Shown: positions 8,792-37,583 of the stretch, one piece after another
Numbering within the stretch: the first letter of the stretch is position 1
How the letters are laid out: every line of letters begins with the position of its first letter
Origin: Deltaproteobacteria bacterium
GTDB taxonomy: Bacteria > Myxococcota_A > UBA9042
Assembly (NCBI GenBank): GCA_016875335.1
Contig: VGRO01000004.1
Coordinates: 32,158-96,157 of the forward strand
Length of the DNA: 64,000 nucleotides
Reading direction: 5' to 3'
Program-made: the position numbers and the translations under genes
Notes under the pieces: generated by a model
Databases searched by the model: none
The model's input: the letters and a program-made list of their open reading frames with translations, nothing else
What the model was told of the DNA's origin: nothing

Positions 8792-10360
8792 CTACTTGGC
8801 CGACAGCGCCGACTGCTTGGGTGAGCAGGCCTCGGCGTCTTGCTGCTGGTTGGTGCAGACGGTGCTGCGCACCGTGAGGTTGCCGGCGTTGTCGATGGCG
8901 GTCTTGACGGCGCTGAACTTGTTGTCGCCCTTGAGCCCGCCCGCGTCCGGCAGCTTGGCCAGCCCGGCCTTGTTGACGACGATGCCGAACTGACCGCCCT
9001 CAAACTCGCTGCCGGCCACGGCGATGTCGATGCCCAGTGCGCCGCTCGCGGCCTTGGGCTGGTGCGCCACCACTCCGGCGCGGGCGTTGTTGGCGAAGCG
9101 CGCGCCCTGGACCTTCAAGCTCGAACCGTGGAATGCCCCGAGGCCGTCGCCCACGTCTTCGAGCATGCCGCCCGCCGGTTCGGCGAATTTGCGGGCCTGC
9201 GTGCCCTCGATGCGCGCGCCGCTGACCTCGATGCGCCCGCCCTTGGCGGCGCCGGCGCCCAACAGGCCGTTGTTGCGCAGTCGCGCCTTGGCGCCCAACT
9301 GCAGCACGGCACCCGTGCCCTGGATCCAGGCGCCGCCGGTCTCGTTGCCCGACAGTTCGCCCTCGATGCTGACTTGCGCCTGCGTGGCGGCAATCAAGCC
9401 GGCCCGTCCGTTGCCAGTCACCGCGCTCTGGGCGTCGACCACCAGGGCGCCGGCCTTGGTCTTGGTGCTGGCGGCCACCACCACGCCGTCGGCAAAGTCG
9501 CCGGTCGCGGTCTTGGCGGTGTCACGGATGGCGCTGCGCGAAATCGAGGCGCCGCCTCCGAACAGCGCAAGGCCGAAATTGCTGTTCTTGCGGATGTCGG
9601 TGGCGGCAATCTGCACGGGCAGCTTGGGCGCATCGTTGCTGCCGGGCGCAAACGCCGGGTCGACGATGGCCACGCCGCCGCCCTGGTTGTTGGCGATGAC
9701 GCTGGCCGGTGCAAACGCCGGATCGACGATCGCCGCGCCGCCATCGGAGGCGCCGGGCTTGAACGCCGGGTCGACGATCGACACCGCCGCCACGCCGACC
9801 GCCAGCACGCCCGTGCCAATGTTGTTTTGGATTCTCGCGCTCTCCAGCACCAATTCGGCGCCACCCTCGGCCTGCACACCGTGACCGCCGGCGCCGTCCT
9901 TGGTCGGCTGGGTGCCGCTCACCGCCACATCGGAGAGCACCAGCGACGCCCCTGCTGCCGCAATGCCGTAGCCAGTCGCGCCCTTGACCGCCACGCCGCG
10001 GATGGTGGACTTGCCGCTGCCTTTGACCGTGATGCCGCTGGCGCCGCCGGCATCCAAGAACACCTGGGTCGCGCCCGGCCCCACCACGTGGACCCCGGCC
10101 GGCAAAGTGAAACTGCCGCCGTAGCTGCCCCCCGCCAGCACGACGGTATCGCCCGCCTTGGCGGCGGCCGCGGCCTGGGCTGGCGTGGCGTAGGGCGCCG
10201 CCTGGGTGCCGTCGCCGGAAGCGGAGCCGCAGGCGCTGGACACGTACTTGGCCGAACCGCTAGCGGCGGGCCAACTCTCCGTGCACGAGTCGGCACACCC
10301 CGCGAGGTGGCAAAGAGTGGAAATCGGAAAGCAAACGGCGAAAAGGCGGGCGATCTTCAT
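8792..10360 (-). CDS. secreted lipoprotein with right-handed parallel beta-helix (pectin-lyase-like) repeats
   Basis: Start MKIARLFAVCFPISTLCHLAGC (lipobox) at 10360. Repetitive G/A/V-rich beta-helix-like repeats (IVDPAFAPGS..., NNIGTGVLAVG...). The N-terminal 477 codons of listed ORF 8792..11794 are run-on upstream sequence; the plus ORF 8840..10369 is an antisense shadow. Confidence 0.65.
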   Translation of the reverse strand: MKIARLFAVCFPISTLCHLAGCADSCTESWPAASGSAKYVSSACGSASGDGTQAAPYATPAQAAAAAKAGDTVVLAGGSYGGSFTLPAGVHVVGPGATQVFLDAGGASGITVKGSGKSTIRGVAVKGATGYGIAAAGASLVLSDVAVSGTQPTKDGAGGHGVQAEGGAELVLESARIQNNIGTGVLAVGVAAVSIVDPAFKPGASDGGAAIVDPAFAPASVIANNQGGGVAIVDPAFAPGSNDAPKLPVQIAATDIRKNSNFGLALFGGGASISRSAIRDTAKTATGDFADGVVVAASTKTKAGALVVDAQSAVTGNGRAGLIAATQAQVSIEGELSGNETGGAWIQGTGAVLQLGAKARLRNNGLLGAGAAKGGRIEVSGARIEGTQARKFAEPAGGMLEDVGDGLGAFHGSSLKVQGARFANNARAGVVAHQPKAASGALGIDIAVAGSEFEGGQFGIVVNKAGLAKLPDAGGLKGDNKFSAVKTAIDNAGNLTVRSTVCTNQQQDAEACSPKQSALSAK

Positions 10361-10434
10361 GGTCGCTAGCCTAGCAAGCGGGACGCGTTGGGTGCAAGGC
10401 GCGGGTCCCTGTGAGAGTGCTGCGGCGCTGCCTG

Positions 10435-13400
10435 CTACTTGGGACCGCAGAAGAACTGGCCCGTGGCCGAAAAAGCCCGCGCGATGATCGACCGCTCGCC
10501 CGCGGCGCTGTGATCGCCAAAGCCGATCCAGCCACCGGCCGGCCGCGGAAACACCGTGCGCAGCACCGCACTGGACGGCACCACCAGCGCGCTCGTCCAC
10601 CCCAGTTTGCCGTCGCCGCCGACCCCCAGCGCCAGGGTCGCCAGTGCGCTCGCGACACCGGCCGCCTGTGCCACCACCACAGCACCTTGGCCGGCCGCGT
10701 GGCCCCCGAGCGGCAGTTGGCTGCCGTCGATGGCCAAGGTGTGATCGACCGCGAGCTTGCCGTCGCCGCTGAACCGCACGACGCGCACGTCGTTTTGCCC
10801 GGCGATTGCTTGCCGCGCGACCACCAGCAAGTCGCCGCTCGACAGGGCCAACACCCTGACCACCTCGACGTTGGACGGCGAGGCGACGGTCGCGGACCAC
10901 ACTGGGACCCCTGCTGTCGACAGCCGGATCACGAGCACGATGTTCTTGACCTCCTCGGCGCCAGCCACCACCCAGCCGTCGGCCAGGGCGGCGATGTCGG
11001 TCAATTGGCCGGGCTGCATCGGGTGCGTGAACGACCACAGGGACTTGCCGCCGAGATCGCGTGCCTCGGCGGCCGGCCGCCGCGTGGTCGCACCCGAAGC
11101 CACGTGACCGACGGCGACAAAGGTGCCCTTGCCGTCGGTGGCCACGCCGAACCAGGCCTGGGGACCGGTCTCGTCGGGGCTGTCGACCACCAGCAGCTTG
11201 CCCGCCGCATCGGCGCGGGCCCAGACGCTGTTGCGCTGCAGGGCGTTGCCGCCCTTGGGCTGACTCCAACCGACCAACCACGCGCCGCCATCGGCGGTGG
11301 CGGCGACGCCCTGCAGCGCTTCCTGGCCGCCAGGCACGACATCGTGGTACTGCACGGCGACCGGGGCCCCTGCCGAGTCGACGCGGGCGACCAGGCTGCC
11401 GGCGGCGTCGGACGGCACAGCGCTGACATTGTGGAACCCGGCCAGCCACCAGCCGGCCTGAGCTGCGGGCGCGCCGCCCAGCACGAATTCGGCGACCTTG
11501 GCGTCGCCAAAAAGTTGCTGCGTCCACGGACACGGACCGCAGTGGCCGGCCGCGCAGCTGTGGTCGCCCGAGCAGGCGGCGGTGGTCGCAGCAGCGGCTG
11601 CGAGGCAGCCGGCCGAAGGCGAACAGGTGTCGGTCGTGCACGGGTTGCCGTCGGTGCAGTCGTGGACGACCGAGCCGATGCAGGCCCCGTCCAGGCAGCG
11701 GTCGAGGTCGAGGCAGGCGTCGCCGTCGTCGCAGTCGCCGGTCTGGCGCACCGGCCGCGGACCGGCCCACAAGTCGCACTGCTGGCGCAGGCAAGGCGGA
11801 TCGTAGCCGACTGGACTCGGGTCGAGCTGGCTTTCGCCGGTGGCCACTTCCAGTCGTGCGACGGCGCCGTGGCGCGCGCCTTCCGCAGTCTCTCGCGTGC
11901 CGGTCACGACCACCTGGTGGCCGGCGAGGCGAACTCCGCCTTGCAGACGCACATTTCCGAAATCACTGCCAAATCCAACGCGATTCCACACGACGGTGTC
12001 CTTGGCCGATATCCGCACGGTCCACGACGAGCCAAAGGTGTCAGGCCCGCCGTAGTTGGCCGTGCCAAAGCCCACCACCGCGCCGTCGTGCAGGGGCACG
12101 GCACCAAACAGGATCGCACCATTGGGCAATGGGCCGCCGCCATTGGCCTTGTCGATGGCCACCGCGCTCAGGCGCTCGCCCTGGGCGTCGAAGCGCGTGA
12201 CCAGGATCTGCGAGAGGACGCCGCTGGTGGCCCGGCCGACGGCGACCGCTCCACCGTCCGGCGTGCGGGCGATGCCCTGCAGTTCGTCGAAGGCCGCGTT
12301 GGCGCCGTTCTTGCCATTGGTCCGGTCGAAGTAGTAGAGCAGCGGCTTGCCGTCCTTGCCGAGCGCGACGCTGCCGTCTTGATGCAGCACGCAGATCATC
12401 TCGTCTTGCTGGGCTGCGCCAGCCACCGCCGGCACGGTGCGGTAGCCGGCCGCGAGGATCCGCGCCGCCGCGCCCCAGCCGACCACCGCCACGCCGCTGA
12501 ACTGGTCGTGTTTGCTGTCGCCGTGGCGCAGTTCCCACTTCAAGCCGAGGTTGGCGTCCATCCCCGCGATCCAGCCGTCCGCCAGCCCTTTGGACGCGGA
12601 AAAGGAGTAGCCGACCGCGACCCAATCGCCCGACGGCAGCGCCGCGGCGCGCAAGAGCACGTCGTCTTCGCCGGCGCCCACGGTCTTGTCAGCGAGCACC
12701 TTGCCGGCGGCGCCGACCAGCAGCAGCCACCCGTCGGATTTGCCGGCCCCGGAAGACGTGCTGTCGCCGACCGCCAGCCAGGCGGCAGCCGGTCCACGCG
12801 CGAGGCCGCGCAGGCGGTCGATGCCGGGTTTTTCGAAGACCTTGTCCCACAGCACTTGGCCCTCGGCGCTGACCGCATGCAGCCAGCCGTCGGCCGCACC
12901 GTTGCTGCCAACGGTATGCCCGGCCGCCAACACCGCGTTGCCGTCAAGCGTGGCCGCGCCGGGCAGGTCGGCGGCGGTCGACGGCGCCGGCAGGTCCACA
13001 AACAGGTGGCAATCGCAACCGTCCTGACCGGTGGCAGCGTCGATGCGCAGCAGGAGCCCATCGGGCATGTCGGGGCTCTGGGTCGACGTCGCCTTGTCGG
13101 GCCGCGTGGCGCCGGCCAGGACCACGTCGCCGTCCGGCAACGCGCAACCGCCGCGGCCCTCTTCAGCGCCGTACTGGTCGTATTCGCGCTGCCAGAGGGT
13201 CTTGCCGGTGGCGTCGACGGCTGCCGCCCAGGCGTTGGCCTTGTCGTAGTTGGCGGCGACCACGGCCTTGTCGCCCGCGAGATTGCGGGTGCGGGTGCCC
13301 ATCGCCGTCCACCCGCCGCCGGGCCGCGGCGCCAAGGCCCGGACCACCTCGCCTCCGTCGTCGGGCAGCAGCCATTGGGCCAGTTCGGACCCATCGCCGG

Positions 13401-16400
13401 CCACCCGCACCAACCAACCGTCGCCGGGAGCCAGCAGATTGGCGGCGTTGCGCACGCCCCCCAAGGTCCAGGTGCCGTCGGCATTGGCGACAAGTGCGTG
13501 GAACGCCTCGTGCTGGGTGGTGCCGAACGACTTGGACCACACCGCGTTGCCGGCGAGGTCGAGGCGGACGACCCAGGCGTCCTGCTGTTGGCTCGGCGCC
13601 TTGGGGTTGCCGCGCTGGCCGACCGCCCACGCACCCTGGCCGTCGGGTTGCAGCGCCACCGCCCACAGGTGCTCGGACACGGCGGTCTGCGACCCTGTCT
13701 GCTGGCCGATGAGCTTGCTCCACGCGAGCTTTCCGGCCAGATCGATGCGGGCAACGAGCGCGTCGGTGGCGCCGCCCTTGGCGTTGTCGATGCGGCCGAC
13801 CGCCAGCGCGCCGCCGTCGGTCAGGGTTGCCACCCCGTCGAAGCGGCCGAGGTCGGTGGCCCCGCTGCCTGCGGGAGGCGGCAACACCAGTTGGGCCTGC
13901 ACATCGCCATTGGCGTCGACGCGCACCAGCCACGGCCGCTGGGCCGGCGCCTTGCCTTGGCCGACGCCAGCGAACCACGCGCCGCCATCGGGCCGCGGCG
14001 ATACCGCCAAGAGGCGATCGGCGCCCGAGGCAGGCGAAGGGCTGTCGGCGACATAGGTGCGCTCGAAAAGCCAGGCGCCCTGCGCGTCGTGCCACACCGC
14101 CCAGCCGCGGGTGGCCTGGGTGCCATCAACCGAGGCCGCGCCCACGGCGACGAGGCCGGCGCCCGGCAAGGCGGCGACTTCTTCCTGCTCTTCGCGCTGG
14201 GCCTTGCTGGCATATTTGCAGGCAGCGGGCCAGGTGCCCGGCGCCGACGCCAGCAGCGACACTTCGGCGCAGCCGCCGCGCTCGATCCTGCGCCACGCGC
14301 CGCACCCGCCGCACTGGCCTTGATGGCACAGGCGCCCCAGGCTGCACGGAGCCTGGTTGGCCGCGTGCACGCAGGTCTTGCCGTCACCGGCGCACGCGTC
14401 GTCAGTGCACGGGTTGGCGTCGTCGCAGCCGGTCGCGGTGACGCCCTGGCACAGACCGGCGGCGCACCCATCGCTGCCCGTACACGGGTTGTGATCGTCG
14501 CACGGCCCGCTAGCTACGGGTGCGTGGGCGCAGCCGCCTGGGCCGCAGCCGTCGGTGGTGCATGCGTTGTCGTCGTCGCATGCCGCGGCTGGGTTGGCCT
14601 CGTGCAGGCAGCCATCGACCACGTCGCAGCTGTCGAACGTGCAGGGGTCCTGGTCGTCGCAGTTGACCTTCTTGCCAGCGCAACCTCCGTCCAAGCACGC
14701 GTCGCCGCCGGTGCAGGCATTGCCGTCGTTGCAGGGGCCGCCGGGCGGGATGGCAGACTGCGTGCACTGGCCGGTCTTGGGGTTGCACTGCGCCTTGGTG
14801 CACGCTGTGTCCTGGTCCAGTGGGCAGACGACCACGGTCGATGGTTTGATCTTGCACTGGAACGGCAACTGGGCTTTGTCGCAGTACAGCGTGCCATTGC
14901 ACAGGTTGCCGTCTTCGTTCTTTGCGCAGTCCAGGTCGGCGTAGCAACCGCACAGGTCGCTGCCGGGAATGCACTTGCCGCCCAGGCACGTGTCGCCAAA
15001 GGTGCACAGCGAGCCGTCTTCACACGGGCTCTGGTTGGGTTGCGGCAGGTTGGCGCACTTGCCAGCCTTCGGGTCACAGGCATAGGTGTGGCATGGCGGC
15101 GGGGCGCCGCTGCCGCAGGTGACCACGGTCGCCGGGTTGACCGCGCACTGAAAGGGCACCTTCTGCTTGTTGCAGTACAGTGCGCCATTGCATGCGTTGC
15201 CGTCTTCGAACGGGGCGCACTGGCTGTCGGCCGTGCAACTGCAGGTGTTGGCGCCGGCCACGCACTGGCCCGCATCGCAAGCGTCGGTCTCGGTACACGG
15301 GTTGCCGTCGGCATCGCAGGCTTGGCCCTGGTTGCGCTGGGTCATCGCGCACTTGCCGGTTTGCGGGCTGCACAGATTGGCGAGGCAGAAGGTGTCGGCC
15401 GCCGGACTGCACGCCACCACGGTGTTGGGGTTGACCTTGCACGATCCCGTGGGTTTGTCGCAGTACAGGCTGCCGTTGCACGGGTTGCCATCCTCCTGTT
15501 GGGCGCAGTCCGCGTCCGCCTGGCAGACGCACACGTTGGGTCCGGCCTTGCAGCCGCCGGCTTTGCAGGCGTCGCCGGTCGTGCAAGGCGAGCCGTCGGC
15601 GTCGCACGCCGTTCCGTCCGCGAGCGCGGTCATCGCGCACTGGCCGCTGGCTTTCTGACAGACGTTGAGCGTACAAGCGGAGTCGCCGCCACCCGGACAC
15701 GTGACCACCGTCGCCGGGTTGACGGCGCACACGTAGGGCAGTTTGGCCTTGTCGCAGTACAGGGTCCCGTTGCACAGGTCTCCGTCGTCCTTGCCCTTGC
15801 AGTCGTCGGTGGCGGTGCAGGCGCACAGGTTGGTCGCGGCCTTGCACGCGCCGGCCAGGCAGGCGTCGTCGGGGGTGCACGGGTTGGCGTCGTCGCAGGC
15901 GGTTCCGTCCTTGGCCAGGACCACCGCGCACTTGCCGGTCTTGGGGTTGCACTGGTTCTTGCTGCACGCGGTGTCGGCGGCGCTCGGGCAACTGACCACC
16001 GTGGCCGGATTGATCTGGCACAGGTGCGGCGCCAGGGTCTTGTTGCAGAACAGCGTGCCATTGCACAGGTCGTTGTCTTCGACGGCCTTGCAGTCGCTGT
16101 CGCTCTGGCAACCACATGCGCTCGGACCCGACGCGCACGCTCCCGCCTTGCAGGTGTCGGCGACCGTACAGACCTGGCCGTCTTCGCACGGGCCGCCGTC
16201 GTTGACAGCTGCGTAGGCGCAGGCGCCGGTCGTGGGCGCGCAGGTGTTCTTGCTGCATGGCGTGTCGGAGGCCGGCGAGCAGGCGACGACCGTGCCCGGG
16301 TTGGTCTTGCACGACCAGGGCAGCGCCGACTTGTCGCAATAGGGCACGCCGTTGCACAGGTTGCCGTCGTCGGCACAGTCGGCGTTCTGCTTGCACAGGC

Positions 16401-17159
16401 ACAGGTCTGGGCCCGGCACACACGCGCCGGACAGGCAGTGGTCGCCGTCGGTGCAAATCTTGCCGTCTTCGCACGGCCCGGCCTGGTTGGTGGGCGTGGC
16501 TTCGCAGGCGCCGCTCAGCGGGTTGCACTGCTGGGCAAGGCACGGGCTTTCGGCGGGCGGGCACACGACTTGCGATCCGGGCTTGGCGGCGCACACGGCC
16601 GGGTTCTGTTTCTTGTCGCAAAAAAGATTCCGTTGCACAGGTTTGCGTCGTCCAGGGCCGCGCAGGCCGCGTCGCTGGTGCAGCCACAGCCGTTGGTGCC
16701 CGGCTGGCACAACCCGTCGGCGCAGTGGTCGGCGACGGTGCACGAATCGCCGTCGTCGCACGGGGCGTTGTCGAGCGACGGCACGACCGCGCAAGTCTTG
16801 GTGGCCACCAGGCAGCGCGCCTCGAGGCAGGGCAGATTGGGGTCGGGGCAATCGCCGTTCTTGGCGCATGGCGGGCCTGCGCGGGCTGCGGTGACGTCGC
16901 TCGCGGGCGGCACGTCGCTGGTGGAGCCGCTCTCGGTCGGCACGGCGTCGGCGCCGGTTTCGAGTTGCGCGTCGCCGGCACGCGCCTGGTCGGGCGCCGA
17001 CGCCAGGTCGCCCAGGGTCGCGTCCAAGGCGGCGACATCGGCAGCGGGTGCGGTACTGTCGGCCGCTGAGGTCGGCGCGTCACGACATGCGGCGAGCGCG
17101 ACCGAGAGGCCCAGGGCCATCGCCGACGATCGAACCCAGCGCGCAGCAAGCATCGCCAA
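10435..17159 (-). CDS. giant (about 2,240 aa) secreted lipoprotein: N- and C-terminal arrays of Cys-rich repeats (C-x-DG-x-C-T-x-D-x-C-x-x-G-x-C / LCNGxxxC) flanking beta-propeller-like repeats; frame interrupted by a 1-nt shift near 16620-16626
   Basis: ORF 16515..17159 has a lipobox N-terminus (MAMLAARWVRSSAMALGLSVALAAC) and then Cys repeats ending ...DDANLCNGIFF. ORF 10435..16869 resumes the same repeat (...NLFCDKKQNPAVC...) in another frame. The junction lies at an A6 run (plus strand gcaaaaaag, 16618-16626). The central region has about 20 repeats of DGG-W-AVG propeller type. The plus ORF 10411..17178 is an antisense shadow. Confidence 0.7.
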
Positions 17160-17297
17160 CCTCCGCGCGGCAGGCTAGCAGAGATCGGCTGGTGCGGGCA
17201 GGGGCGACGCAGGGATCGCGGTCGGCCGCCACGCTTGGCGTTTTGGCACGATGTGGCTATTTTGCGGTCAGGGCGTTTGTCCCTGGGAGGTTCGAGC

Positions 17298-17900
17298 ATG
17301 GCCGCGACCAGGGCGCAAGCCGACGCAGGGCAGGCACAACCGGCGCCTTCGGCCTTGGCGCCGTCGATGCTCATCGCGATGCCCGGCATGGAGGACGGCT
17401 TTTTTGCGCGTACGGTCATCTTGCTGGTCGAGCACGGCGCCGAGGGTGCGGGCGGCGTGGTGCTCAACCGGGTGGCCCCGCTCGACCTGGACACGCTGCT
17501 CAAGTCGACCGGGTTGGACAAGGCGCCGAGCGGGCCGCACCCGGTGTGGGTGGGCGGCCCGGTGTCGCCCCAGGCCGGGCTGGTGCTGTACTTGGACGAG
17601 GGCGGCAAGCGCTATGACCACGACATCGAAGTGCTGCCCGGTCTGCGGCTGTCGGCCTCGCTCAACGTGCTGCGCGACGTGGCGGCCGGCAAGGGCCCCA
17701 AGTCCTTCGGCCTCTACTTGGGCCGCGCCGGCTGGGGTCCCGGGCAACTGGAAGAGGAGTTGGCCAAGGGCGCGTGGCTGACCACCGAACCCGACCTGGC
17801 GTTGCTTTTCTGCACCGACGGCGACGCGGCGTGGCGGCGCGCGCTCAGCGGCCTTGGCACCGACGAACAGCACGTCGTGCGCGAAATCGCCAGTGCATAA
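17298..17900 (+). CDS. yqgE: YqgE/AlgH family protein (UPF0301)
   Basis: MLIAMPGMEDGFFARTVILLVEHGAEGAGGVVLNRV...WVGGPV... is typical of YqgE/AlgH. Start at ATG 17298 (MAATRAQ); the listed ATG 17235 is also possible. Confidence 0.8.
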   Translation: MAATRAQADAGQAQPAPSALAPSMLIAMPGMEDGFFARTVILLVEHGAEGAGGVVLNRVAPLDLDTLLKSTGLDKAPSGPHPVWVGGPVSPQAGLVLYLDEGGKRYDHDIEVLPGLRLSASLNVLRDVAAGKGPKSFGLYLGRAGWGPGQLEEELAKGAWLTTEPDLALLFCTDGDAAWRRALSGLGTDEQHVVREIASA

Positions 17901-18954
17901 CGCAGTTCTGGGCGCCCTTGCCGCTTTGCTCGCGGCGAGCGCGTGCGGCGAGGACGCGCCCGACCGCGCCGACGCCGCGACCGCGCCGACCGACACCGAC
18001 ACCGGCCGCGCCGCCAGCCCAGACACCGCCGGGCGCCTCGTCTTGGACGCCCCTGCCGCGGACCCGGGCAGCGCCGACGCACCGGCCGACCACGGCCCGC
18101 CCGTGTTGGACGTCGCGATCGATGGCGCAGCGCTGCCCGACGCGGCCGGTTGCACCCCGCTGTGCAAGGGCAAGGTCTGCGGTCCCAACGGCTGCGGGTC
18201 CGTGTGCGGGTTTTGCAAGTCGGGCGAGTTCTGCGCGGCCGACGGCAGCAAATGCCAGGGCTTTTGCGAAAAGAACTGCAAGGACAAGGTCTGCGGTTCC
18301 GACGGCTGCAACGGCCTGTGCGGCACCTGCGACAAGGGGTTTTCGTGCGGCGACGACTTCAAGTGCTACGCCGACGCCTGTCAGGGGTCGTGCACTGGCA
18401 AGGCGTGCGGCGACAACGGCTGCGGCAAGTCGTGTGGCGTCTGCGCCGGCAGCGACTACTGCGACGCTGGCCAGTGTATGGCCAACGCATGCAAGGGCCT
18501 CGATGTGCAAAAGGGCCAGTGCGACGGGGACCTGCTGCTGACCTGTTCGGGCACGGGCGCCGCTGCCAAGAAATTGGTCAAAGACTGCGCGGCCCCGCCC
18601 AACCTGCAGAACCTGACCTGCGGCTGGGACGCCGCCGCGAACAAGAACGGCTGCGTGCCCAAGACCTGCGACCCGAGCTGCACCACCGACGCCGGCGACA
18701 AGATGGTGTGCGGCAACAACGCCTGCGGGCAACCCTGCGGCACCTGCCCCGAGGGCTGGAAGTGCAATGTGACCTCGTGCGCGCCGGCCGAGGGCGCCTC
18801 GTGCACGCCCGGCAACTTTCCGCCCGAGGGCCAGTGCAGCGGCAGCACCTGGATCTACTGCAACACCGGCAAGCTCAAATTCGTCGATTGCAAGGCCGCT
18901 GGCATGGACAAGTGCGGCTGGAACGCGGCGGCCGGCAAGTTCGAGTGCCTATAG
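17854..18954 (+). CDS. Cys-rich secreted lipoprotein with repeated C-x-GK-x-CG-x-(N/D)GCG-x-x-CG-x-C modules
   Basis: Lipobox ...GALAALLAASAC; the GTG at 17892 overlapping the yqgE stop is a probable alternative start. At least five CGxxGCG modules (KVCGPNGCGSVCGFC; KVCGSDGCNGLCGTC; KACGDNGCGKSCGVC; MVCGNNACGQPCGTC). Confidence 0.6.
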   Translation: MAPTNSTSCAKSPVHNAVLGALAALLAASACGEDAPDRADAATAPTDTDTGRAASPDTAGRLVLDAPAADPGSADAPADHGPPVLDVAIDGAALPDAAGCTPLCKGKVCGPNGCGSVCGFCKSGEFCAADGSKCQGFCEKNCKDKVCGSDGCNGLCGTCDKGFSCGDDFKCYADACQGSCTGKACGDNGCGKSCGVCAGSDYCDAGQCMANACKGLDVQKGQCDGDLLLTCSGTGAAAKKLVKDCAAPPNLQNLTCGWDAAANKNGCVPKTCDPSCTTDAGDKMVCGNNACGQPCGTCPEGWKCNVTSCAPAEGASCTPGNFPPEGQCSGSTWIYCNTGKLKFVDCKAAGMDKCGWNAAAGKFECL

Positions 18955-19746
18955 GCCCGCTGCCATGTGCTGCTTGTAGCGCAGCCCCTCCCGGGCACCG
19001 TAGGGTCCGTAGAACACGTCGTCGAGCGTCAGGCCGTGGGCCGGCGCCGTCTGACCGGCCAGGGAGCGGTCGCCCGCCGACAACATGGCGTCCACGTCGG
19101 CAGGACGAAACCGGTGGCGACCGGCGCCGACCAGCGTCCCAGCGAGGATGCGCACCATGTTGTGCAAGAAGGCGTTGCCCTCGATGGTCAGTTCGACCAT
19201 TTCGCCGGCCAGGGCGACCTCGACCCGGTGCAGCGTCCGCAGTGTGGTGGCCGCCGTGCACTGCACCGATCGGAAGGCGGCAAAATCGTGCGCGCCGACG
19301 AACCGCTCTGCTGCCGCACGCATGGCGACCAGATCCAGTCGGCCTTTACAGTGCCAACTGTTGCGGCGCCACAGCGGCAACCGCACGGGCCCAGGCTGCA
19401 CGCGATAAATGTAGCGTTTGCCGATGGCGTCGGCGCGCACGTCGAACCCTTCGGGCAGGTCCTCGGCCGAAGTGACCTTGAGATCATCGCCCAGGTAGGC
19501 GTTCAGGCCCAGTTGCGCCCCTTTGGGCGGCATGGCCAGGCGCGTGCGCACCAGGACCGGCATGCGCCGCGCGTGGACCCCGGCGTCGGTGCGCGAGCTG
19601 GACCGCATCACCACCCTTTCGTCGAACTTGCGCTGCCAGGCGGCCTCGAGCTCACCGCCGACCGTGCGCAGGCCCTCGCCCTGGCGCTGGAAGCCACAGA
19701 ACCCGCCGCCGTCGAACTGCACCCACAGCAGCAGCGGGCGCATGCC
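18949..19746 (-). CDS. truA: tRNA pseudouridine(38-40) synthase TruA
   Basis: MRPLLLWVQFDGGGFCGFQRQ N-terminus and the catalytic RTDAGVHA motif. Start taken at the internal ATG 19746. Confidence 0.85.
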   Translation of the reverse strand, partial: GMRPLLLWVQFDGGGFCGFQRQGEGLRTVGGELEAAWQRKFDERVVMRSSSRTDAGVHARRMPVLVRTRLAMPPKGAQLGLNAYLGDDLKVTSAEDLPEGFDVRADAIGKRYIYRVQPGPVRLPLWRRNSWHCKGRLDLVAMRAAAERFVGAHDFAAFRSVQCTAATTLRTLHRVEVALAGEMVELTIEGNAFLHNMVRILAGTLVGAGRHRFRPADVDAMLSAGDRSLAGQTAPAHGLTLDDVFYGPYGAREGLRYKQHMAAGL

Positions 19747-19779
19747 GAAATCGACGGCAGCCGATTCGTCGCGCACGGC

Positions 19780-21532
19780 CTACAAGTCGAACGCGAGGCC
19801 GAACGTGAACACGCCGTCGCTGAGATCGATGCTCTTGGCGTTGCCGAAGTCGTTGAGCACGCGCCGATCGTATTCGATGTACAGGTAGCTGTGGTTGACG
19901 CCCATCTCGATGTCGAAACTGCGGGCGGCGCTCGGCTCCAACACGTCCATCAGAAAGCGCAGGCCGGCCACCGCGTGCCAGCCGCCGGTGCCGCCGAGCG
20001 CCTCCAGCTTGGTGCCGGCGGTGGTGGTGTAGGTCGCGTAGTCGCCGCTGCCGTTGAGCATCCACCAAAAGGCGTACATGGCGCCAATCTTGGCGTAGGG
20101 CACGAACGGGATGCCGGCCTTGTGGGCGAGCGGATCGAGGCGGTAGGTCAGGTCCAGGCTGAGCGGCACGATTTTCAAGGTGGTGGCGTCGGTGCTGGCC
20201 TTGCCGGTCGATTTCTCGAGGCCTTTGCCCTCCTTGGTGAACCAGCCGTAACCCAAGCCGACGGACAGCGAGCCAAAGCGGTCCCACAGACGCACGTCCG
20301 CGGCGCCGCCGATCTCCCAATCGGCGTTGCCGAAGATGTCGGCGTACGGCTTGGCCTTGCCGCCAAAAGGCGCGTCGATGCCGGGCAGGTAGCGGGTCGC
20401 GCGAAATTCGGCGCTGTTGTCGAGCGGCGAGTCGGCGTAAGCCGTCGCGGATCCCGTGCCCACTGCGGTCAGTACCAGCGCGGCCACCGCCAGGCCCCTG
20501 CGCCAGCGCCAGCCGCCGATGGCCAGAAGGGCCGCCAGCCCGGCCAGCCACCAGCCGCCGGCCGCCGGACGCGCGCCCGCGCTGCATGGGGCAAAGCCGC
20601 CCTCCTCGGTGCCGCCAGAGGTCTGGTAGTGCTGCCACGCGTCGATGACGTCGATGGGGGTGCCCTTGCCCAACTCTGAATAGCCCGACTCGTTGCCGTG
20701 ATCGTCCACGGCCGTGACCACCACGTAGTAGGGCGTACCGTTAGTCAAGTCCTTGATCTGGTAGTATTTTGTGGTCACCAGGGCGGACTTCTGCGGCTTG
20801 ATCGTCCCGGCGGCCACGCCGGTGGGATCGATCGGCAACGTCGCCCAATACACATGACTGCCCGCAACCTTGCTGCTGTCGCCGTGCTTCCAGGTAGCGG
20901 TCAGGTTGCCGCCACCGGGAGCAACGGACGACAGCGTGGGCGCGGGCGGGCCCGCCAGGTCGACGAGGATCTTGCTTTTGAACGCCACGACCTGCTGGTT
21001 GACGCCGGTCGACGCCTGGTCATTGACCAGGAAATACACGAAGGCGTCCTGTTCGCTGTTCTCGTCACAGGTCGTGTCCTTGCCGAGCAGCTGGTGCAGC
21101 TGGACCTCGACGCTGTAGGTCGCGCCGAGCTTGTAGGTCTGCTCGCTGTGCACGATGCACGAGGTGTTGGTGTCGTCCTTTTGCAGCGTGGTCTCGCCGC
21201 ACGCCTTGCCGCGCGGTGCGACCTTGACGACGCCGCTGTAGTTGCCGGGAAAGGACGGCGCCCAGGTCCAGTTGATTTTGACCACGGGGTTGGCCGCCGC
21301 CATGATCGCTTTGCAATCGGCGCGGTTGATGTAGTGCACGTCGTTGGCCTGGCCCGGCGTCGAGGCGCCCACGCCGAAATGGCTGGGCGGCGCCCAATCG
21401 GAACCCGAGGCGGTCTCAATGCTTTGGATGGCGACGACCGGCACCGCCCAGGCCGCGGTCGACCACACCGCCGCCGCACACGCCACCACAGCCGCGCCGA
21501 TGCCTTGGGTCCACGGGGTCCTACGGGTCATG
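19780..21532 (-). CDS. secreted protein: N-terminal FN3-like/Ig-like domains, an internal MYXO-CTERM-like motif, then an in-frame C-terminal ~200-aa domain with a signal-peptide-like start and an OMP-like terminus
   Basis: Signal peptide MTRRTPWTQGIGAAVVACAAAVWSTAAWA from ATG 21532. FN3-like segment (...TPYYVVVTAVDDHGNESGYSELG). Internal ...APCSAGARPAAGGWWLAGLAALLAIGGWRWRRG at 20497-20605, followed directly by LAVAALVLTAVGTGSATAYA↓DSP... and a C-terminus ...GVFTFGLAFDL. Confidence 0.6.
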
Positions 21533-21720
21533 CCTCTCCTGCGGGCAGCGACCGCAATCGGCGGTCCCGCACCGAACCGCCTTGCACGCGCCGTGCCAAG
21601 GTCGCGCCGTGCCAAAAGCCGTGCAGACGGGCATTTGTTCCCGTCGGCCGACGAGCGGGGTTGGCCATTTCGGTCACGCGAGGACCGCGCCACAGCGGTT
21701 GCGTGCCATTTTGGCAAGGG

Positions 21721-22749
21721 CTACGCCCCGTGCACCAGGCCGCCGGCAACCGCCAACTTGGCAATCTGCACGGCGTTGGTGGCGGCGCCCTTGCGCAGGT
21801 TGTCGGCGACGACCCACAGCGCCAGGCCATGGGGGACGGACGGATCCCGGCGGATGCGGCCGACGTACACCGGGTCGGTCTCGGCACAGTCCATCGGCAT
21901 CGGATAGCGCTTGTTGGCGAGGTCGTCGACCACCACCACGCCGTGGGCCGAAGCGAGCGCTTCGCGGGCCTGCGCGACCGTGATCGGCCGGTCGAACTCG
22001 GCGACCACCGACTCGCTGTGGCCGCAGGTCACGGGCACGCGCACGGCCGTCGGGCACACCGCCAGATCCGGCAACCCCATGATCTTGCGCGTTTCGTGCA
22101 CGAGCTTGAGCTCCTCTTCGGTGTAGCCACCTTCGGCCGGGCTGCCGATGTGCGGAATCACGTTGAAGGCAATGCGGGCGTTGTGCACCGCGATGTCAAA
22201 CGGTTTGCCGTTGAGCAGGGCCGCCGTCTGTTGCGCAAGCTCCTCGATGCCCTTCTGACCGGCGCCCGACACGCTCTGGTAGGTCGATACCACCACGCGA
22301 CGCAGTCCTGCCAGATCGTGCAAGGGCTTGAGCGCCACCACCATCTGGATCGTGCTGCAGTTGGGGTTGGCGACGATGCCCTTGTGGCCGATGAGCGCGG
22401 TGGGGTTGACCTCCGGGACCACCAGCGGCACGTCGGCGTGCATGCGAAAAGCACTGCTGTTGTCGATGCACAGGGCGCCGCGGCGGGCGGCCTCGGGGAG
22501 CAGGGCCTTGCTCACCGCCGATCCGGCGGACGCCAGCACGATGTCCACGCCGTCGAACGCCTTGGGCTCCGCGACCTGAACGTCCAACGACCGCGCGCCA
22601 AAGTCGACGGTCTCGCCGACCGATCGCGGCGACGCCAACGCCAGGACTTCAGTTGCGGGAAAGCGCAGCTCGTCGAGCACGCGCAGCATCTCGCGGCCGA
22701 CCGCGCCTGTCGCACCGAGGACCGCGACTGTGTAGCGTTTTTCTTGCAT
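21721..22749 (-). CDS. asd: aspartate-semialdehyde dehydrogenase
   Basis: VAVLGATGAVGREML Rossmann N-terminus; active-site region NPNCSTIQMVVAL; ...GAGQKGIEEL. Confidence 0.9.
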   Translation of the reverse strand: MQEKRYTVAVLGATGAVGREMLRVLDELRFPATEVLALASPRSVGETVDFGARSLDVQVAEPKAFDGVDIVLASAGSAVSKALLPEAARRGALCIDNSSAFRMHADVPLVVPEVNPTALIGHKGIVANPNCSTIQMVVALKPLHDLAGLRRVVVSTYQSVSGAGQKGIEELAQQTAALLNGKPFDIAVHNARIAFNVIPHIGSPAEGGYTEEELKLVHETRKIMGLPDLAVCPTAVRVPVTCGHSESVVAEFDRPITVAQAREALASAHGVVVVDDLANKRYPMPMDCAETDPVYVGRIRRDPSVPHGLALWVVADNLRKGAATNAVQIAKLAVAGGLVHGA

Positions 22750-26621: not shown

Positions 26622-28817
26622 CTATGGGCACTTGAGGTTCTTGTTGGGCTGCAGCGGGTACTTCTTCGTCCACAAATCTCCTTTGGAATCTGAGCCCTTG
26701 CAGGGCTTGAACGAGGCTGGCGACCACGTCGCGACGCCCGCGCACCACATGTCCTGCATGTCCATGGTCGGACCGGTCTTGGCGGTGTGCAGCTTGCCGT
26801 CGAGGTACACCTTGATCGTCGGCGTCGATTTGCCAAAGCCGTTGTTCGAGAAATAGTAGACCCCGACGAAGTACGGCAGGTTGGGCTGGGGCACGTGCAC
26901 GGCGATGATCTCCGGCCCCCACCCGTCCTTGTCGTCGCGGTCCAAGGCGGCGTCGTCGTCGAAATCGTCGCTTTTTCCCCACTTGCCGACCACGTTCCAC
27001 ACCGAGCAGTCCAGGCACGGCGCGTACCACGGGTCGGGCTCCCCGTTCTTGTCCAGGTCGGGTTGACCGGGTTCGTCGGGCGCGTCGGCGTGGGCAAGGT
27101 GGACATCCAGGTCCGATCCCGCCGGCTTGCTGCCGGTGGCCGGGTCGGTCTCGTCGGTCTTGTCGGGATCGGCCGGGGTATCCCAGGTCAGTTCGACGTA
27201 GAGCTTGTCGTCGCTGATGACGTTCAGCTCGTAGCTGGTCGGCCCGCAGCCGGGCGTGTCGAACGCATCCGCGATTTCAAGGGTCACCACGTATTTGCCG
27301 GCGATGTTCGGTTGCAGTTGCGGAGTCTTGACGTTGGCGGACGGCTGGAAGGTCGCGTACGACCCGGCCGGCTGCTGCAGGGTCCACTTGTACTTGGCGA
27401 TCGGCTGCCCGCTCGACCCCGGGACCGAGCAGCCGGCGTCGAACTTGAGCTTGCTTTGCGGCAGCACGTCGCCGCTGAGTGAACCGCCGGTCGCCAGCTT
27501 GACTGCCATGCACGCCTTGGGGCACTGCACCGTCGCCGCCGCCTTGCCTTGCAGCGCAAAGGCCGCGATTCCGGCGTTGCTGGTCACTGCGATCTTGCCC
27601 TTGCTGCTCGCACCCAACTGCGGTGCCGTGTAGCTCACGCCCAGGCTGCAGGTGGCGCCCTTGGGCACGACGACAGGGTGGGCGGCGCTCGGCGGCTTGC
27701 CGTTGAAACACGTGGACGCAAAGCTGACGGCAAAGCCCTGATCGACACCCTCGGCCACAGCGACGTCGGTGATGGCCAGATCTTCGGTGCCGCACGCCTG
27801 AATCTGCACTTCGCGCGGCTGCGGCACGCCGACGGGCACGACGCCGAAGTCGATGGGCCCTGGCGGCACGAATTTCACGCACGGCCCGGTGGTGTTGACG
27901 ACAAAGCTCAGGTCGACCTTTTCCTTGCCCGGCTCGTTGGTGGTGAGCCGCAGGATGGCCTGCGCCTTCTCCTCGCTGGCCAGATTCTTGAAAACGACCG
28001 GAATCTCCAGGGCGGTGCCGGCCGCGATTTCGACGGTCTTGCCTGCCGGCAGGTCGGCGCCTTTGGCAATGGTGTAGGGGCCGAGTTGGGCTTGCAAGGG
28101 CAGCGATCCGAGCATGGTGGCCGCGGAAAGGACCGCAGCCCCCTTGCCGTCGTTGGCGCAGAGCACGGTTGCCGTCGCCCCTTGGGCCAGACCGACCTTG
28201 CCGAAATCGGTGGTGGACGGCGTACAGTCCAGCTTGGGTGAGCCCAACCGCGTGGCAAACGTGGCCGTCCACGGCGTGTCGCCCTGCTTGACATCCCCTG
28301 AAAACGTGATCGCTACCTTGTACTTGCGCAGATCCGACCCCGCCGGCCGGGTGTAGCGCACGCTGAAGTTGACTTGGGTCAGCGCGCCAGCCGGCGCACA
28401 CTTGGGGTCGAATCCGGCTGGGATGACCGCCGGGAAGCCGGCCGGCGCACAGGGCTTGCCGTCGTGGGCGACACAGGCGAAGGCCGGCGCGGACACGGGC
28501 TTGCCGTCGCCGTCCGTTTCTTGCAGGGCGACGGCCTTGACGACCAGCGGCCGGCCCGACACCGCCTGCGCGTCGTTGCGGATGCGAAAGCTGAACTCGC
28601 GCGCGCCACCTGGCTGCAGGGCCACCACGTCGATGTCATAGGCGATGCCCGCAGCGTTGCCGGCCGCGTCCGAAACGCGCAGCACCGCGTTGTGGTCGAT
28701 GTTTTCGTTGGCGCATGCGCCGGACGTCGGCGCGTCGGTGCCGCAGCCGAGCACAGGGCCAGCGAGCACCGCGCCGGCAAGGCCGCAGGTTGTCCAGCTC
28801 CACATCCGACTGCGCAT
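26622..28817 (-). CDS. large secreted lipoprotein, paralog 1 of 3 (DUF1573/ASH-like Ig-fold repeats plus conserved acidic C-terminal domain)
   Basis: Lipobox start MRSRMWSWTTCGLAGAVLAGPVLGC at 28817. Repeats of PIDFGVVPVGVPQPREVQIQACGTEDLAITDV type. C-terminal domain ...ELTWDTPADPDKTD...DLDVHLAH...DLDKNGEPDPW...LDRDDKDGWGPE...VGVYYF... Confidence 0.7.
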   Translation of the reverse strand: MRSRMWSWTTCGLAGAVLAGPVLGCGTDAPTSGACANENIDHNAVLRVSDAAGNAAGIAYDIDVVALQPGGAREFSFRIRNDAQAVSGRPLVVKAVALQETDGDGKPVSAPAFACVAHDGKPCAPAGFPAVIPAGFDPKCAPAGALTQVNFSVRYTRPAGSDLRKYKVAITFSGDVKQGDTPWTATFATRLGSPKLDCTPSTTDFGKVGLAQGATATVLCANDGKGAAVLSAATMLGSLPLQAQLGPYTIAKGADLPAGKTVEIAAGTALEIPVVFKNLASEEKAQAILRLTTNEPGKEKVDLSFVVNTTGPCVKFVPPGPIDFGVVPVGVPQPREVQIQACGTEDLAITDVAVAEGVDQGFAVSFASTCFNGKPPSAAHPVVVPKGATCSLGVSYTAPQLGASSKGKIAVTSNAGIAAFALQGKAAATVQCPKACMAVKLATGGSLSGDVLPQSKLKFDAGCSVPGSSGQPIAKYKWTLQQPAGSYATFQPSANVKTPQLQPNIAGKYVVTLEIADAFDTPGCGPTSYELNVISDDKLYVELTWDTPADPDKTDETDPATGSKPAGSDLDVHLAHADAPDEPGQPDLDKNGEPDPWYAPCLDCSVWNVVGKWGKSDDFDDDAALDRDDKDGWGPEIIAVHVPQPNLPYFVGVYYFSNNGFGKSTPTIKVYLDGKLHTAKTGPTMDMQDMWCAGVATWSPASFKPCKGSDSKGDLWTKKYPLQPNKNLKCP

Positions 28818-28897
28818 CGACGCCACCACTGCCCGCGGCGCAAAACCGGGCCGCACGCCGCCAGTGTGCCACGCAGGCCGGCCGGGGTCCAAAACGC

Positions 28898-31231
28898 CTA
28901 CTTGGCGCAGGCTTTCAGCGTGATCGAGGTCAAACTCCAGTATTTCGGCACGATTTTGCCCGCCGACGGCGCCTTGAGGTTGGCGCCCCCGAAGTTGGCC
29001 AGGTCGCAGCTGGGCCATTTGACTTGGGTCACCCACCACATTTCACACTCGTTCATCGGCTGGTCGAACTTGGCCTTGAGCGCGCCCATGCAGTAGATGC
29101 GCACCGTCGCGGTGCTGGGCGAGCTGCTGTTGAAGCCGTGCGCGTCCCAGAAGTGCACGCCGACGCCGTAGTCCACGCCGTTCTCGGGCAGTTGCAGGTT
29201 CATGTTCTCGGGTCCCCAGCCGTTGGTGTCGTCGAGATCCAGGCTCGGGTCATCCGTCTGCAAGGCTGCGTTGCCCCACTTCGGGGCCGGGTTGATCCAG
29301 TACACGTCGTACACGCCATTGAACCACGGGTCGGTCTGGCCGTCCTTGTCCAGGTCGGGCTGGCAGTTCTTGGTGACCGTCGCGCTGCACTGTTGGGCTT
29401 GGTAGGCCTTGCTGTGCACCACGTGCAAGTCGAGGTCGGCGCCCTCGGCATTGGGCCCGTCGTCCTGCACGGTGTCCTCGGGGGTGTTCCACAGCAGCTC
29501 TACGTGGAAGGCCACGCTCGGCACCACCAGCACCGACAGGACCGCGGGCGCGCACGATTCGGTGCCACTGTCGTCCCACACCTGCAGCTTGACCTTGTAC
29601 TCGCCGGCTACCGTCAGCCACACGATCGGGCTGCCGTCGGGCTTGGTCCCCGGCACGCCCAACTGCACGTCGGCGGAGGTGTCGTTGGGGTGGAATTTGA
29701 CGCCGACCGCGCCGGCCGGGGCGTCGAGCAGCGTCCACTTGTACTTGACCACCTTTCCGGGCGGCGCGGCGTAGCTGGCAGACCCTTTGAGCTTGAGCGG
29801 CATCTGCGGTTCGATCTGCTCGCCCGGCTCGGGAACGATGACCGGCGTCGGGCACTTGGCCGCGTTACCGGTGCACGATAGCGTAATGGTCTTGTTGGGT
29901 TTCGCCGTCGAGTCGACCAGGTCCAGCTTTGCCGTGAACGGCTGGTTGACCCCGGCGCTGTCCTTGTTCTCGCTCGGTGGCGTACACGCGATGTCGAGCG
30001 TGGCCTTGCCGTTCTTGGCCAGGACCGTCGGCTGGTCCGGGGTCGGCAACTTCGCGTTCTTGAAAGCGTAAACGCCAGCGGTGTCGCCCGCGATCTTGGC
30101 CGAGTTGATCTGCACCTCGCCTTCGCCGCAGTTGGTCAGCGTCACGGTCTTGACCGACTCGGTGCCGACGTACACTAGGCCGTGATCCAAGGCTTTTTCT
30201 GGCTTGACCAAAAGGCACGGCACGTTGAGATTGCCGGCCAACTGCACGGTCGCCGCGCCGGCCGCGTTGCTGGTCAGCGTCAAGGTCGCCTTGCGTCCCT
30301 TGTCGTCGATGGGCGCGAAGACCACTTCGCCGTCCAGGCTCTTGCCCGGTTCAATCAGGATCGGCGGGGCGAAGGTGACGTCCTTGTCGCCCGTCGCGGT
30401 CTTGCCACCAAGCTTGACGGCAAAGGTCTTGTCCTGCAGGGGCCACTGGATGCCGGTGACCTCCAGCATCGCCTCGCCGGTATTCTGAACCGCCAGCGCT
30501 TGCACCGAAGGGGGAGCCCCCGGGGCGACCACGGCGAAATCGACGAACTGCGGCGCTACGTTGATTGCGGGCTTGCCCTGCTTGGTCTGCACGGCGAATT
30601 GCACGAAAGTCTGATCCGGGTCACCATCGGACTTGATCTGCACGTTCACGGACTTGGGCAGGTTGTCGGTCTTCTCGAAGCGGATGACGAAGCGGGCGGC
30701 GTCGATCGCCTCGCGGGTCGTACAGGCCGCCTCGAAGTCCTTGGGCACGATCGACCCCCATGTGTGGTCCTTGCACAGCACCGCGACGCCGTTCTTCTTG
30801 ACGATCTTGCCGTCCTTGTCGGCCGCGAGGCACGAAAACGCCGTCTCGCCGGCCGGCGCCACCACCTCGATCTTGCCGATGAGCAGTTCCAGCGCGGCGC
30901 TGGTCTGTGCCTCATTGGAGATCTGGAAGGCCGTGTCCACGGGCGGACCGCCGATCGTGGTCGCCGCGGCATTGACCACCACCGGGACCGTCGGGTTGAC
31001 GGCGGTCAGGCCCTGGCGCAGTTGCAGCTTGGCCTTGCGGTCCAGGCCCGTGGTGTTGTCCTTGTCGAAGCTGCATTTCTTGGCCACGACCGCGCCGCCG
31101 TCCGGACCCGTGCCCGCGCCGGTTCCCGACGACCCCTCCGACAAACAGGACGCCAAGGCGGCCAGGCACACCAAGGCCCCCGCGATCGCCGCGCTCGCGG
31201 CCGACCGCCCGTTGCAACGCATCTGCATCAT
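28898..31231 (-). CDS. large secreted lipoprotein, paralog 2 of 3
   Basis: Start MMQMRCNGRSAASAAIAGALVCLAALASC. DUF1573-like repeats (FVDFAVVAPGAPPSVQALAVQNTGEAMLEVTGI; LDHGLVYVGTESVKTVTLTNCGEGEVQINS). C-terminus ELLWNTPEDTVQDD...DLDLHVVH...DLDKDGQTDPW...LDLDDTNGWGPEN...VGVHFW... Confidence 0.7.
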   Translation of the reverse strand: MMQMRCNGRSAASAAIAGALVCLAALASCLSEGSSGTGAGTGPDGGAVVAKKCSFDKDNTTGLDRKAKLQLRQGLTAVNPTVPVVVNAAATTIGGPPVDTAFQISNEAQTSAALELLIGKIEVVAPAGETAFSCLAADKDGKIVKKNGVAVLCKDHTWGSIVPKDFEAACTTREAIDAARFVIRFEKTDNLPKSVNVQIKSDGDPDQTFVQFAVQTKQGKPAINVAPQFVDFAVVAPGAPPSVQALAVQNTGEAMLEVTGIQWPLQDKTFAVKLGGKTATGDKDVTFAPPILIEPGKSLDGEVVFAPIDDKGRKATLTLTSNAAGAATVQLAGNLNVPCLLVKPEKALDHGLVYVGTESVKTVTLTNCGEGEVQINSAKIAGDTAGVYAFKNAKLPTPDQPTVLAKNGKATLDIACTPPSENKDSAGVNQPFTAKLDLVDSTAKPNKTITLSCTGNAAKCPTPVIVPEPGEQIEPQMPLKLKGSASYAAPPGKVVKYKWTLLDAPAGAVGVKFHPNDTSADVQLGVPGTKPDGSPIVWLTVAGEYKVKLQVWDDSGTESCAPAVLSVLVVPSVAFHVELLWNTPEDTVQDDGPNAEGADLDLHVVHSKAYQAQQCSATVTKNCQPDLDKDGQTDPWFNGVYDVYWINPAPKWGNAALQTDDPSLDLDDTNGWGPENMNLQLPENGVDYGVGVHFWDAHGFNSSSPSTATVRIYCMGALKAKFDQPMNECEMWWVTQVKWPSCDLANFGGANLKAPSAGKIVPKYWSLTSITLKACAK

Positions 31232-36707: not shown

Positions 36708-37516
36708 CTACGCCGGCCGTGCGTGCAGCCACGCCTTGGTGCGGGCGTGTTCGGGGGCGCGCTCGGTGCGCTTGACCCGGTAGCCGCAGCCGCGCGAAAT
36801 CAACTGCACCGTGTGGGCGCGACCCGGGAAGGCCGCCTGGAGTGCGGCGAGCACCGCGTCTGTGTCGAAGAACTTGCAGGAAAAAATGTCGAAATACGCG
36901 CGCTGGCTGGCCAGGTCGATGTGCACGGCGATGTGCGATTCGGCGATCATGGTCATCGCCGACAGCCAACTGGCGCCGTCGGGCCCGGCGGCATCGGTCG
37001 ACCGCAGCACGTAGGGCCGCATGATCGGCGTCATGTCGATGCGCGGCGGCAGGTTGTCGAAGAGGTGGAAAAGGCCGTCCATGTCGCTCGGGCCGCAGTA
37101 GCCGTCGATGTTGAGCAACAGGTGCGGACCAAAGTCCTCGCTCGGGTGGACCGGCACCTCGTCGAACGGCCGCGGTCGCCGGGCGGTGTGAACCTCGACG
37201 GAGCGGACCGGCAGCGCGTTCTGGATGTAGGCGTTGGCCTCGTGGACGTCGAAGGCCCGCGGCGCGACCAGATCGACGAAGTAGCACTCGCGAAAGCTGA
37301 AGGTGTGCAAAGTCAGGTGGCCGCCCGGCAGCAATACGAACGCGCTGATGCCGCAGTCGTCGGGTTCGACACCGTTGTAGTACGGCAACAGCATCGGCGG
37401 CATCGCCGGCTGCAGCCCGAGGCGCGCCGGCAGCTCCTCGACCAACTCGTGGATCAACCGGATGTCGTCGAAGCGCGATCGGTGACCGCCAAAGCCATCG
37501 AGCGTATAGTGCAGCA
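36708..37516 (-). CDS. pyruvoyl-dependent AdoMetDC-family decarboxylase, tandem (pseudo-dimeric) fusion
   Basis: Real start MLHYTLDGFGG at 37516; the listed ORF 36708..39254 runs on upstream. The first half has a degenerate HLTLHTFSFRE motif with no Ser. The second half has the processing site AESHIAVHIDLASQRAYFDIFSCKFFD (ES↓H). Confidence 0.7.
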
Positions 37517-37583
37517 TGGTTCCAGGCGCGCGGCGATGGGGTTGTGGGCCGCGGGGCGCGCAATTGTGGCAGAGGTCGCGGTG

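Follow-up and report, generated by a model that had tools for sequence, protein, structure and literature searches.

A 2239-residue cysteine-rich repeat lipoprotein gene carrying a one-base frameshift in a metagenome-derived Deltaproteobacteria bacterium genome

The stretch of 64,000 nucleotides (nt) of contig VGRO01000004.1 analysed here (assembly GCA_016875335.1, positions 32,158 to 96,157 of the forward strand; hereafter the window) belongs to a metagenome-assembled genome (MAG) labelled "Deltaproteobacteria bacterium" at NCBI. Its minus strand contains two overlapping open reading frames (ORFs), an N-terminal ORF of 214 amino acids (aa) at 16515..17159 (-) and a large ORF of 2144 aa at 10435..16869 (-). 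A preliminary description, made from the sequence alone, had taken them for the halves of one gene for a lipoprotein of about 2240 aa, broken at a run of six A/T. Translation, third-position GC content (GC3) and alignment to orthologs bear this out and place the junction of the frames at about 16620-16631. We propose, with a probability of roughly 0.6, that a genuine and very recent one-base deletion has made the gene (locus tag FJ100_01655) a nascent pseudogene or a loss-of-function allele of one of many paralogs.

The N-terminal ORF gives a sensible translation as far as ...ALDDANLCNG, followed by 38 nonsense codons (IFFATRNRTRP...) until a TGA at 16517-16515; this out-of-frame tail (16515..16617 (-)) is the same DNA that the real gene uses in its own frame. 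The large ORF opens with 80 nonsense codons rich in R and P, through ...RKPVQR, and then reads NLFCDKKQNPAVC... over 2064 codons. GC3 switches frames at the same place: between about 16650 and 16620 it falls from 0.94 to 0.66 in the upstream frame and rises from 0.62 to 0.88 in the downstream frame. Here the plus strand (16618-16626) reads gcAAAAAAg, with the A6 at 16620-16625, which corresponds to a T6 on the coding strand, where the junction is AAC GGA ATC TTT TTT GCG and the T6 allele as read is GGAATCTTTTTTGC. One base added at the junction gives a single minus-strand ORF of 2239 aa (gene 17153..10435). The preliminary description had raised A5 and A7 as lengths that might restore the frame; A7 (+1) does so and A5 does not, and both routes considered below, a lost C and a lost T, need one additional nucleotide.

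The gene can thus be described in three parts. On the evidence of the GC3 plot, the translation and the ortholog alignment, the segment before the break (16632..17153 (-)) encodes residues 1-174 (...LCN) and the first two bases of Gly175. The junction GG|AATC|TTTTTT|GC (16618..16631 (-)), delimited by the sequence, its repair and the alignment, is one base short: either the Gly codon has lost its third base (between 16630 and 16629), or an ancestral T7 has lost one T. The main gene body after the break (10435..16629 (-)), supported by the ORFs, the translation and GC3, runs from NLFCDKK... to ...FFCGPK with the stop codon at 10437-10435. Translation begins at an ATG (17153-17151) that is preceded, 6 nt upstream, by a Shine-Dalgarno-like GGAGG (17160..17164 (-)), as read from the sequence. 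The 212-aa product of the frameshifted N-terminal ORF is present as a gene call in IMG and in the Logan assembly, and the annotated starts of the downstream products (2043 or 2067 aa) fall at no natural N-terminus. The annotation should accordingly be corrected: a single gene of 2239 aa underlies the two gene calls of 212 aa and 2043/2067 aa.

The plus strand carries an ORF of 2255 aa (10411..17178) that runs uninterrupted over the giant gene and the junction. We rejected it as an antisense shadow, as its translation is R/A/G-rich nonsense and its GC pattern by codon position is the reverse complement of that of the coding frame. Such an ORF is a trap for gene callers in a high-GC genome.

A search of 5.8 billion protein clusters recovered the truncated call for the window's gene itself (P0001, 2043 aa, JGI), ten full-length orthologs of 2135-2260 aa with 34-75% identity from MAGs labelled Myxococcales or Deltaproteobacteria, and more than 1600 partial relatives (1643 matches). 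The preliminary description had asked whether orthologs also carry two separate ORFs at this site, but all ten are single ORFs, each with a signal peptide containing a lipobox-like Cys and with a C-terminal F-C-G-P, and in each of them exactly three residues separate CNG from C at the position of the junction. The locus of the closest ortholog (L001, 75% identity) is syntenic with the window, with an AlgH-like DUF179 gene, TruA and an fn3 protein upstream and a beta-helix protein downstream. The reading frame is therefore interrupted relative to intact full-length orthologs, as expected of a frameshift pseudogene.

Apart from the missing base, the gene bears no mark of decay in these comparisons. 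The repaired protein is collinear with the ortholog P0002 (4 gap positions in 2239), retains all 147 conserved Cys columns and keeps 322 of the 323 columns that are invariant among the orthologs, the sole miss being an alignment gap in a low-complexity linker. Relative-rate tests of the repaired protein against an intact ortholog gave 118 vs 98, 99 vs 102 and 88 vs 91 unique changes (p ≥ 0.2). An old pseudogene is ruled out by these rate and conservation tests. Since conservation is intact and the rate is not accelerated, the single lesion must be very young, not real, or bypassed. The preliminary description had listed error, phase variation and pseudogene without ranking them; a young but real frameshift fits best, and the other two are less supported, as set out in the following.

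An artefact of sequencing or assembly, with the base missing only in the reads or the consensus and the organism's gene intact, appears unlikely to us, even though the sequence comes from a metagenome-assembled contig, the gene is perfectly conserved apart from one lesion that adjoins a homopolymer, and every ortholog is intact. Logan, an independent k-mer assembly produced with a different assembler, contains for the public run SRR7985589 a contig of 6917 bp that is 100% identical to window positions 14889-21805, including GGAATCTTTTTTGCG at the junction. This identity over 6.9 kb argues against an assembler artefact and for reads of low noise. Homopolymer errors in short reads typically need a run longer than six. 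The GC3-based map of the 64-kb window revealed no other frame-broken gene. The longest exact repeat touching the junction measures 14 nt, so that a misjoin driven by a repeat, for which no exact repeat of 15 nt or more is available, is unlikely and was rejected. The repeat in question, the coding-strand 14-mer AACCTGTGCAACGG, occurs at 16630-16643 and at 16349-16362 and is common to the first and second super-repeats of the protein described below. It stops exactly at the GG preceding the apparent lost C in repeat 1, while repeat 2 goes on with GGC; it is too short to affect assembly and its position is probably coincidental. A literature search on SRR7985589 found no paper.

Which base was lost bears on how the lesion arose. 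The preliminary description had named the homopolymer as a slippage site. This is plausible, but when the window is aligned to four distinct relatives, the gap falls within the Gly codon and thus 4 nt upstream of the run (window AAC GG- AAT CTT TTT TGC). At this point AAC GGC AAG CTG TAC TGC stands in the two closest orthologs, and AACGGCA is common to all relatives; over the junction, L001 and L002 read AAGCTGTAC and the other relatives ACNCTGTAC. Within the gene itself, the Gly codon of the six other CNG motifs is GGC five times, GGG once and GGA never. If the C of GGC was lost, the T6 would be ordinary coding sequence for Leu-Phe-Cys and the protein would read NG-NLF-C. If a T was lost, an ancestral GGA ATC TTT TTT TGC would have changed from T7 to T6 and the protein would have read NG-IFF-C. 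The ratio of GGN AAT CTT TTT to GGA ATC TTT TTT expected from codon frequencies is 1.67, and that of NLF to IFF from the residue frequencies of 755 family motifs is 2.5; taken together, these priors would modestly favour loss of the C of a GGC codon. Indels are, however, orders of magnitude commoner in a run of 7 nt than at a unique site. Slippage from T7 to T6 is thus mutationally likelier and the codon and motif priors cannot outweigh the mutability of T7; by our estimate, a lesion so near the run would otherwise be a coincidence of well under 1%. The run as such is not unusual. Tracts of A6/T6 had been called rare in this GC-rich DNA, yet the window (GC content 68.3%) contains 12 matches in 11 tracts compared with 6.6 ± 3.0 in dinucleotide-preserving shuffles, which is not rarer than chance, and at least three of these tracts sit within intact coding sequences.

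If T7 is the ancestral state, the tract could be a switch by which T7 (ON) and T6 (OFF) control a surface lipoprotein, with the sampled population mostly OFF. One added T restores the frame and gives NG-IFF-CDK, and in the family both Ile (30/755) and Phe (28/755) are found at the motif positions concerned. Being located at codons 177-178 of 2239, the run is part of the 5' coding region. The lesion is within 4 nt of the gene's sole A/T run of at least 6, the codons near the run are unusually A/T-ending for the genome, and the encoded lipoprotein is one of a very large family of paralogs (1643 matches). Simple sequence repeat (SSR) contingency loci such as the poly-G tracts of Campylobacter and the tracts of Neisseria and Helicobacter likewise have a run early in the coding sequence of a surface protein, where a change of one unit toggles the frame. 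Nevertheless, phase variation is in our view improbable. With six nucleotides, or seven if repaired, the tract stays below the cut-offs that PhasomeIt applies to phase-variable tracts, namely at least 10 for poly-A/T and at least 7 for poly-G/C (PMC6321876). Unlike in the known contingency loci, the tract is not conserved in orthologs or other relatives (the closest orthologs have AAG CTG TAC, and no ortholog is split), and the comparative alignment suggests that the lost base may even lie outside the run, in a Gly codon whose T-loss form, GGA, is unused at the six other CNG motifs. Length polymorphism was not observed either, as the Logan contig runs straight through the junction.

The lesion could also be bypassed during expression. 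A ribosomal -1 shift on C UUU UUU G, or an RNA polymerase that adds a U on the T6, would yield some full-length protein with NG-IFF-CDK. Re-reading one U after UUU UUU does reach the downstream frame, and A-site re-pairing from UUU to UUU would be perfect. A slippery run at the overlap of two frames with the fitting direction of shift is shared with systems of programmed -1 frameshifting or transcriptional slippage such as dnaX (A AAA AAG) and the IS3-family transposases. In contrast to those systems, there is no canonical heptamer here: the zero frame is AUC UUU UUU GCG, and the heptamer C UUU UUU does not follow X XXY YYZ, so that the P-site tRNA must re-pair on CUU. No Shine-Dalgarno-like element was found either (no GGAG or AGGA 6-17 nt upstream), and the 107 nt downstream fold more weakly than shuffled sequences (z = +1.35), which rules out a stimulatory structure for a -1 frameshift. 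The frameshift is conserved in none of the ten orthologs. Efficient transcriptional slippage is known for runs of about 9 or more, and the T6 is shorter. We therefore regard recoding as very improbable.

Taking both kinds of mechanism together, a functional T run, whether as a low-rate T6/T7 switch or as a -1 slippage site giving the full-length 2239-aa protein in some cells or on some ribosomes, seems doubtful at best. If true, expression of one member of a huge adhesin-like family would be controlled stochastically. To our knowledge, such stochastic switches are not known in this uncultured, high-GC, Myxococcota-like lineage, and a mixed T6/T7 population in the reads would be an initial indication that surface proteins are switched by slippage in it.

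We therefore return to the young loss of function as the reading we prefer. A one-base deletion in the 5' part of the 6.7-kb gene for a giant exported lipoprotein would halt translation from the real start after 212 aa and would leave the remaining ~2060 codons without a signal peptide of their own. With an early stop and a downstream part that lacks a signal peptide, the allele of the dominant genotype sampled would be a nascent pseudogene or have lost its function. We infer that the lesion is present in the cells and not only in the reads, and, judging from the sequence, it would presumably abolish function. Like other young single-lesion pseudogenes of bacteria, the gene carries one disabling indel and is otherwise indistinguishable from its functional orthologs, and it is a large member of an expanded family in which one relative (L010) seems to have decayed further. 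It differs from them in that it is known from a metagenome assembly instead of a clone.

Four observations weigh against this interpretation. An otherwise pristine gene is equally expected from an error of sequencing or assembly. The Logan contig probably shares its reads with the MAG, and a systematic read error or a mixed population would be compatible with the identical junction as well. The gene has a single A/T run of at least 6, and the lesion is no more than 4 nt away from it, which hints at a slippage-prone site and possible reversibility. Lastly, the collections scanned yielded no second sample of the species, and the lesion may not be fixed. Protein-guided scans of genome_contigs and metagenome_contigs returned relatives of at most 73% identity and no second copy of the species. 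A degenerate DNA pattern over the junction, which allowed 8-12 nt between its anchors and matches the window, had 0 matches in metagenome_contigs, which means that the source contig is not in that collection. A search with the first 303 residues gave the frameshifted 212-aa ORF as the only near-identical match, a weak result, since P0001 and P0002, which must match, were absent from the matches listed.

The relative L010 (JGI 3300045015, contig Ga0438300_000057 of 91 kb, 9001-14544) is more heavily broken. One in-frame stop and three changes of frame divide it into four ORFs (404, 434, 279 and 713 aa), and it is shorter by about four super-repeats, while most of its neighbouring genes are intact. 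Either the gene has several lesions and is a pseudogene, or the assembly is poor at this place; in the first case it is an example that members of the family do decay. The GGDEF gene adjoining it is likewise split in two.

The repaired protein has a complex domain architecture. The start codon is followed by a lipoprotein signal peptide (17085..17153 (-), residues 1-23), MLAARWVRSSAMALGLSVALAAC, called by eye from the translation. Its end, MLAARWVRSSAMALGLSVA-LAAC, agrees, as judged by eye, with the signal peptidase II lipobox pattern [LVI][ASTVI][GAS]C, with Cys23 as the Cys of the L-A-A-C box, so that the earlier assignment as a lipoprotein stands. A low-complexity linker follows. The presence of Cys-rich and propeller repeats in the product was likewise recognized correctly in the preliminary description, although the proposed arrangement of 12 plus 4 Cys-rich modules of ~40 aa has to be replaced. 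We find instead seven super-repeats of ~97 aa, five Dicty_CTDC-like repeats of ~26 aa and a second cluster of two to three such repeats.

The seven super-repeats, with 14 Cys each, are arranged in tandem from residue 96 to about 805 (14740..16868 (-)), and the frame break falls in the first of them. Their unit length is 94-98 aa, with identical lengths in 8 of the 10 orthologs; the other two deviate only where the unit-marker motif CNG...C is missing or doubled. Because unit lengths are the same across orthologs, the array must be old and not recently amplified. An AlphaFold2 (AF2) model of two units reached a predicted local distance difference test score (pLDDT) of 83, and no structural neighbour of this model was found in the PDB and no Pfam model for the 97-aa unit. 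The five Dicty_CTDC-like repeats (residues 808-935, 14350..14733 (-)) match Pfam PF00526 in five stretches with 31.9 bits against a cut-off of 27. In scoring above the gathering threshold they resemble the CTDC repeat proteins of Dictyostelium, whose motif C-x-D-x-N-x-C-T-x-D-x-C recurs in each super-repeat; in contrast to those proteins, the present one is a lipoprotein of a bacterial host, and its whole 97-aa unit with 14 Cys has neither a Pfam model nor a solved neighbour.

A central region of about 800 aa (residues 985-1787, 11794..14202 (-)) consists of beta-propeller repeats, as indicated by a phmmer match against the PDB to the propeller of CylK (1.5e-9) and by a weak match to an NCBIfam model of SBBP lipoproteins, and from its length we estimate ~16 blades. 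The second cluster of two to three CTDC-like Cys repeats (residues 1788-1875, 11530..11793 (-)) was assigned by Cys spacing and sequence. The C-terminal 364 aa (residues 1876-2239, 10438..11529 (-)) are modelled by AF2 as a seven-bladed beta-propeller of 27 strands (pLDDT 89.2, predicted template modelling score 0.90). Its best Foldseek match is CylK (template modelling score 0.82, E 9e-17), to which a profile search with hmmsearch also leads (3e-13). The fold is thus shared with SBBP propellers such as the C-terminal domain of CylK (PDB 7ROO/7FH6), but identity to CylK is only ~15%, the catalytic N-terminal domain of CylK is absent and nothing suggests an alkylating activity. The protein also shares its lipoprotein nature with the SBBP lipoproteins of the LipL53 type from Leptospira; its match to the corresponding NCBIfam model NF047494 (LipL53) is weak, with 17.3 bits against a cut-off of 400, which places it outside that family, and no match to Pfam SBBP (PF06739) was obtained in the protein at E ≤ 0.1. 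In each of the eleven orthologs an ...F-C-G-P motif, or one close to it, lies 1-5 residues ahead of the stop (window 10438-10452 (-)). The Cys of this motif is the only one in the last propeller, and the terminal F-C-G-P may be a sorting or attachment signal or the partner of an intermolecular disulfide. As a whole, the architecture suggests a lipid-anchored stalk, stiffened by disulfides, that would present binding domains outside the cell.

Uncultured freshwater Myxococcota-like bacteria harbour a very large family of paralogs to which the gene belongs, and at least eight of these paralogs (FJ100_ locus tags, among them FJ100_07080, FJ100_07085 and FJ100_08775) are present within the source MAG itself. 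The relatives P0011-P0120, from this and related MAGs, combine the same Cys-rich stalk with other heads, namely RCC1, beta-helix, fibrinogen-like (fibrinogen C), LamG, NHL and FGE-sulfatase domains. In our opinion this family is of more interest than the frameshift, which adds one more single-lesion split gene in a MAG and is of little weight by itself: more than 1600 relatives share a lipid-anchored Cys-rich stalk with interchangeable heads and are uncharacterised.

A gene for a right-handed beta-helix protein (Pel9A-like; 8792..10369 (-), Pfam PF13229 at 3e-11) lies 65 nt 3' of the giant gene, and the same neighbour follows about 65 nt downstream at the ortholog locus L001 (12815-14383). A terminator scan found no terminator-like site between the two genes. 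They are therefore probably co-transcribed, and the frameshift could in that case be polar on the beta-helix gene.

Elsewhere in the window, paralogous genes stand in a tandem of three at 26622-28829, 28898-31222 and 31278-33572 (-); each encodes ~750 aa with an N-terminus like that of a lipoprotein. They have weak Ig-like matches (HYDIN/ASH/PKD) and share a C-terminal module ...DLDLH...DPW...DDxDGxGPE... for which no Pfam match was obtained. At 36708-39401 the coding signal is equal on both strands; the minus-strand translation is nonsense over ~530 aa and protein-like only near the C-terminus. Two of the A6/T6 runs of the window (36881 and 37792) fall within this region.

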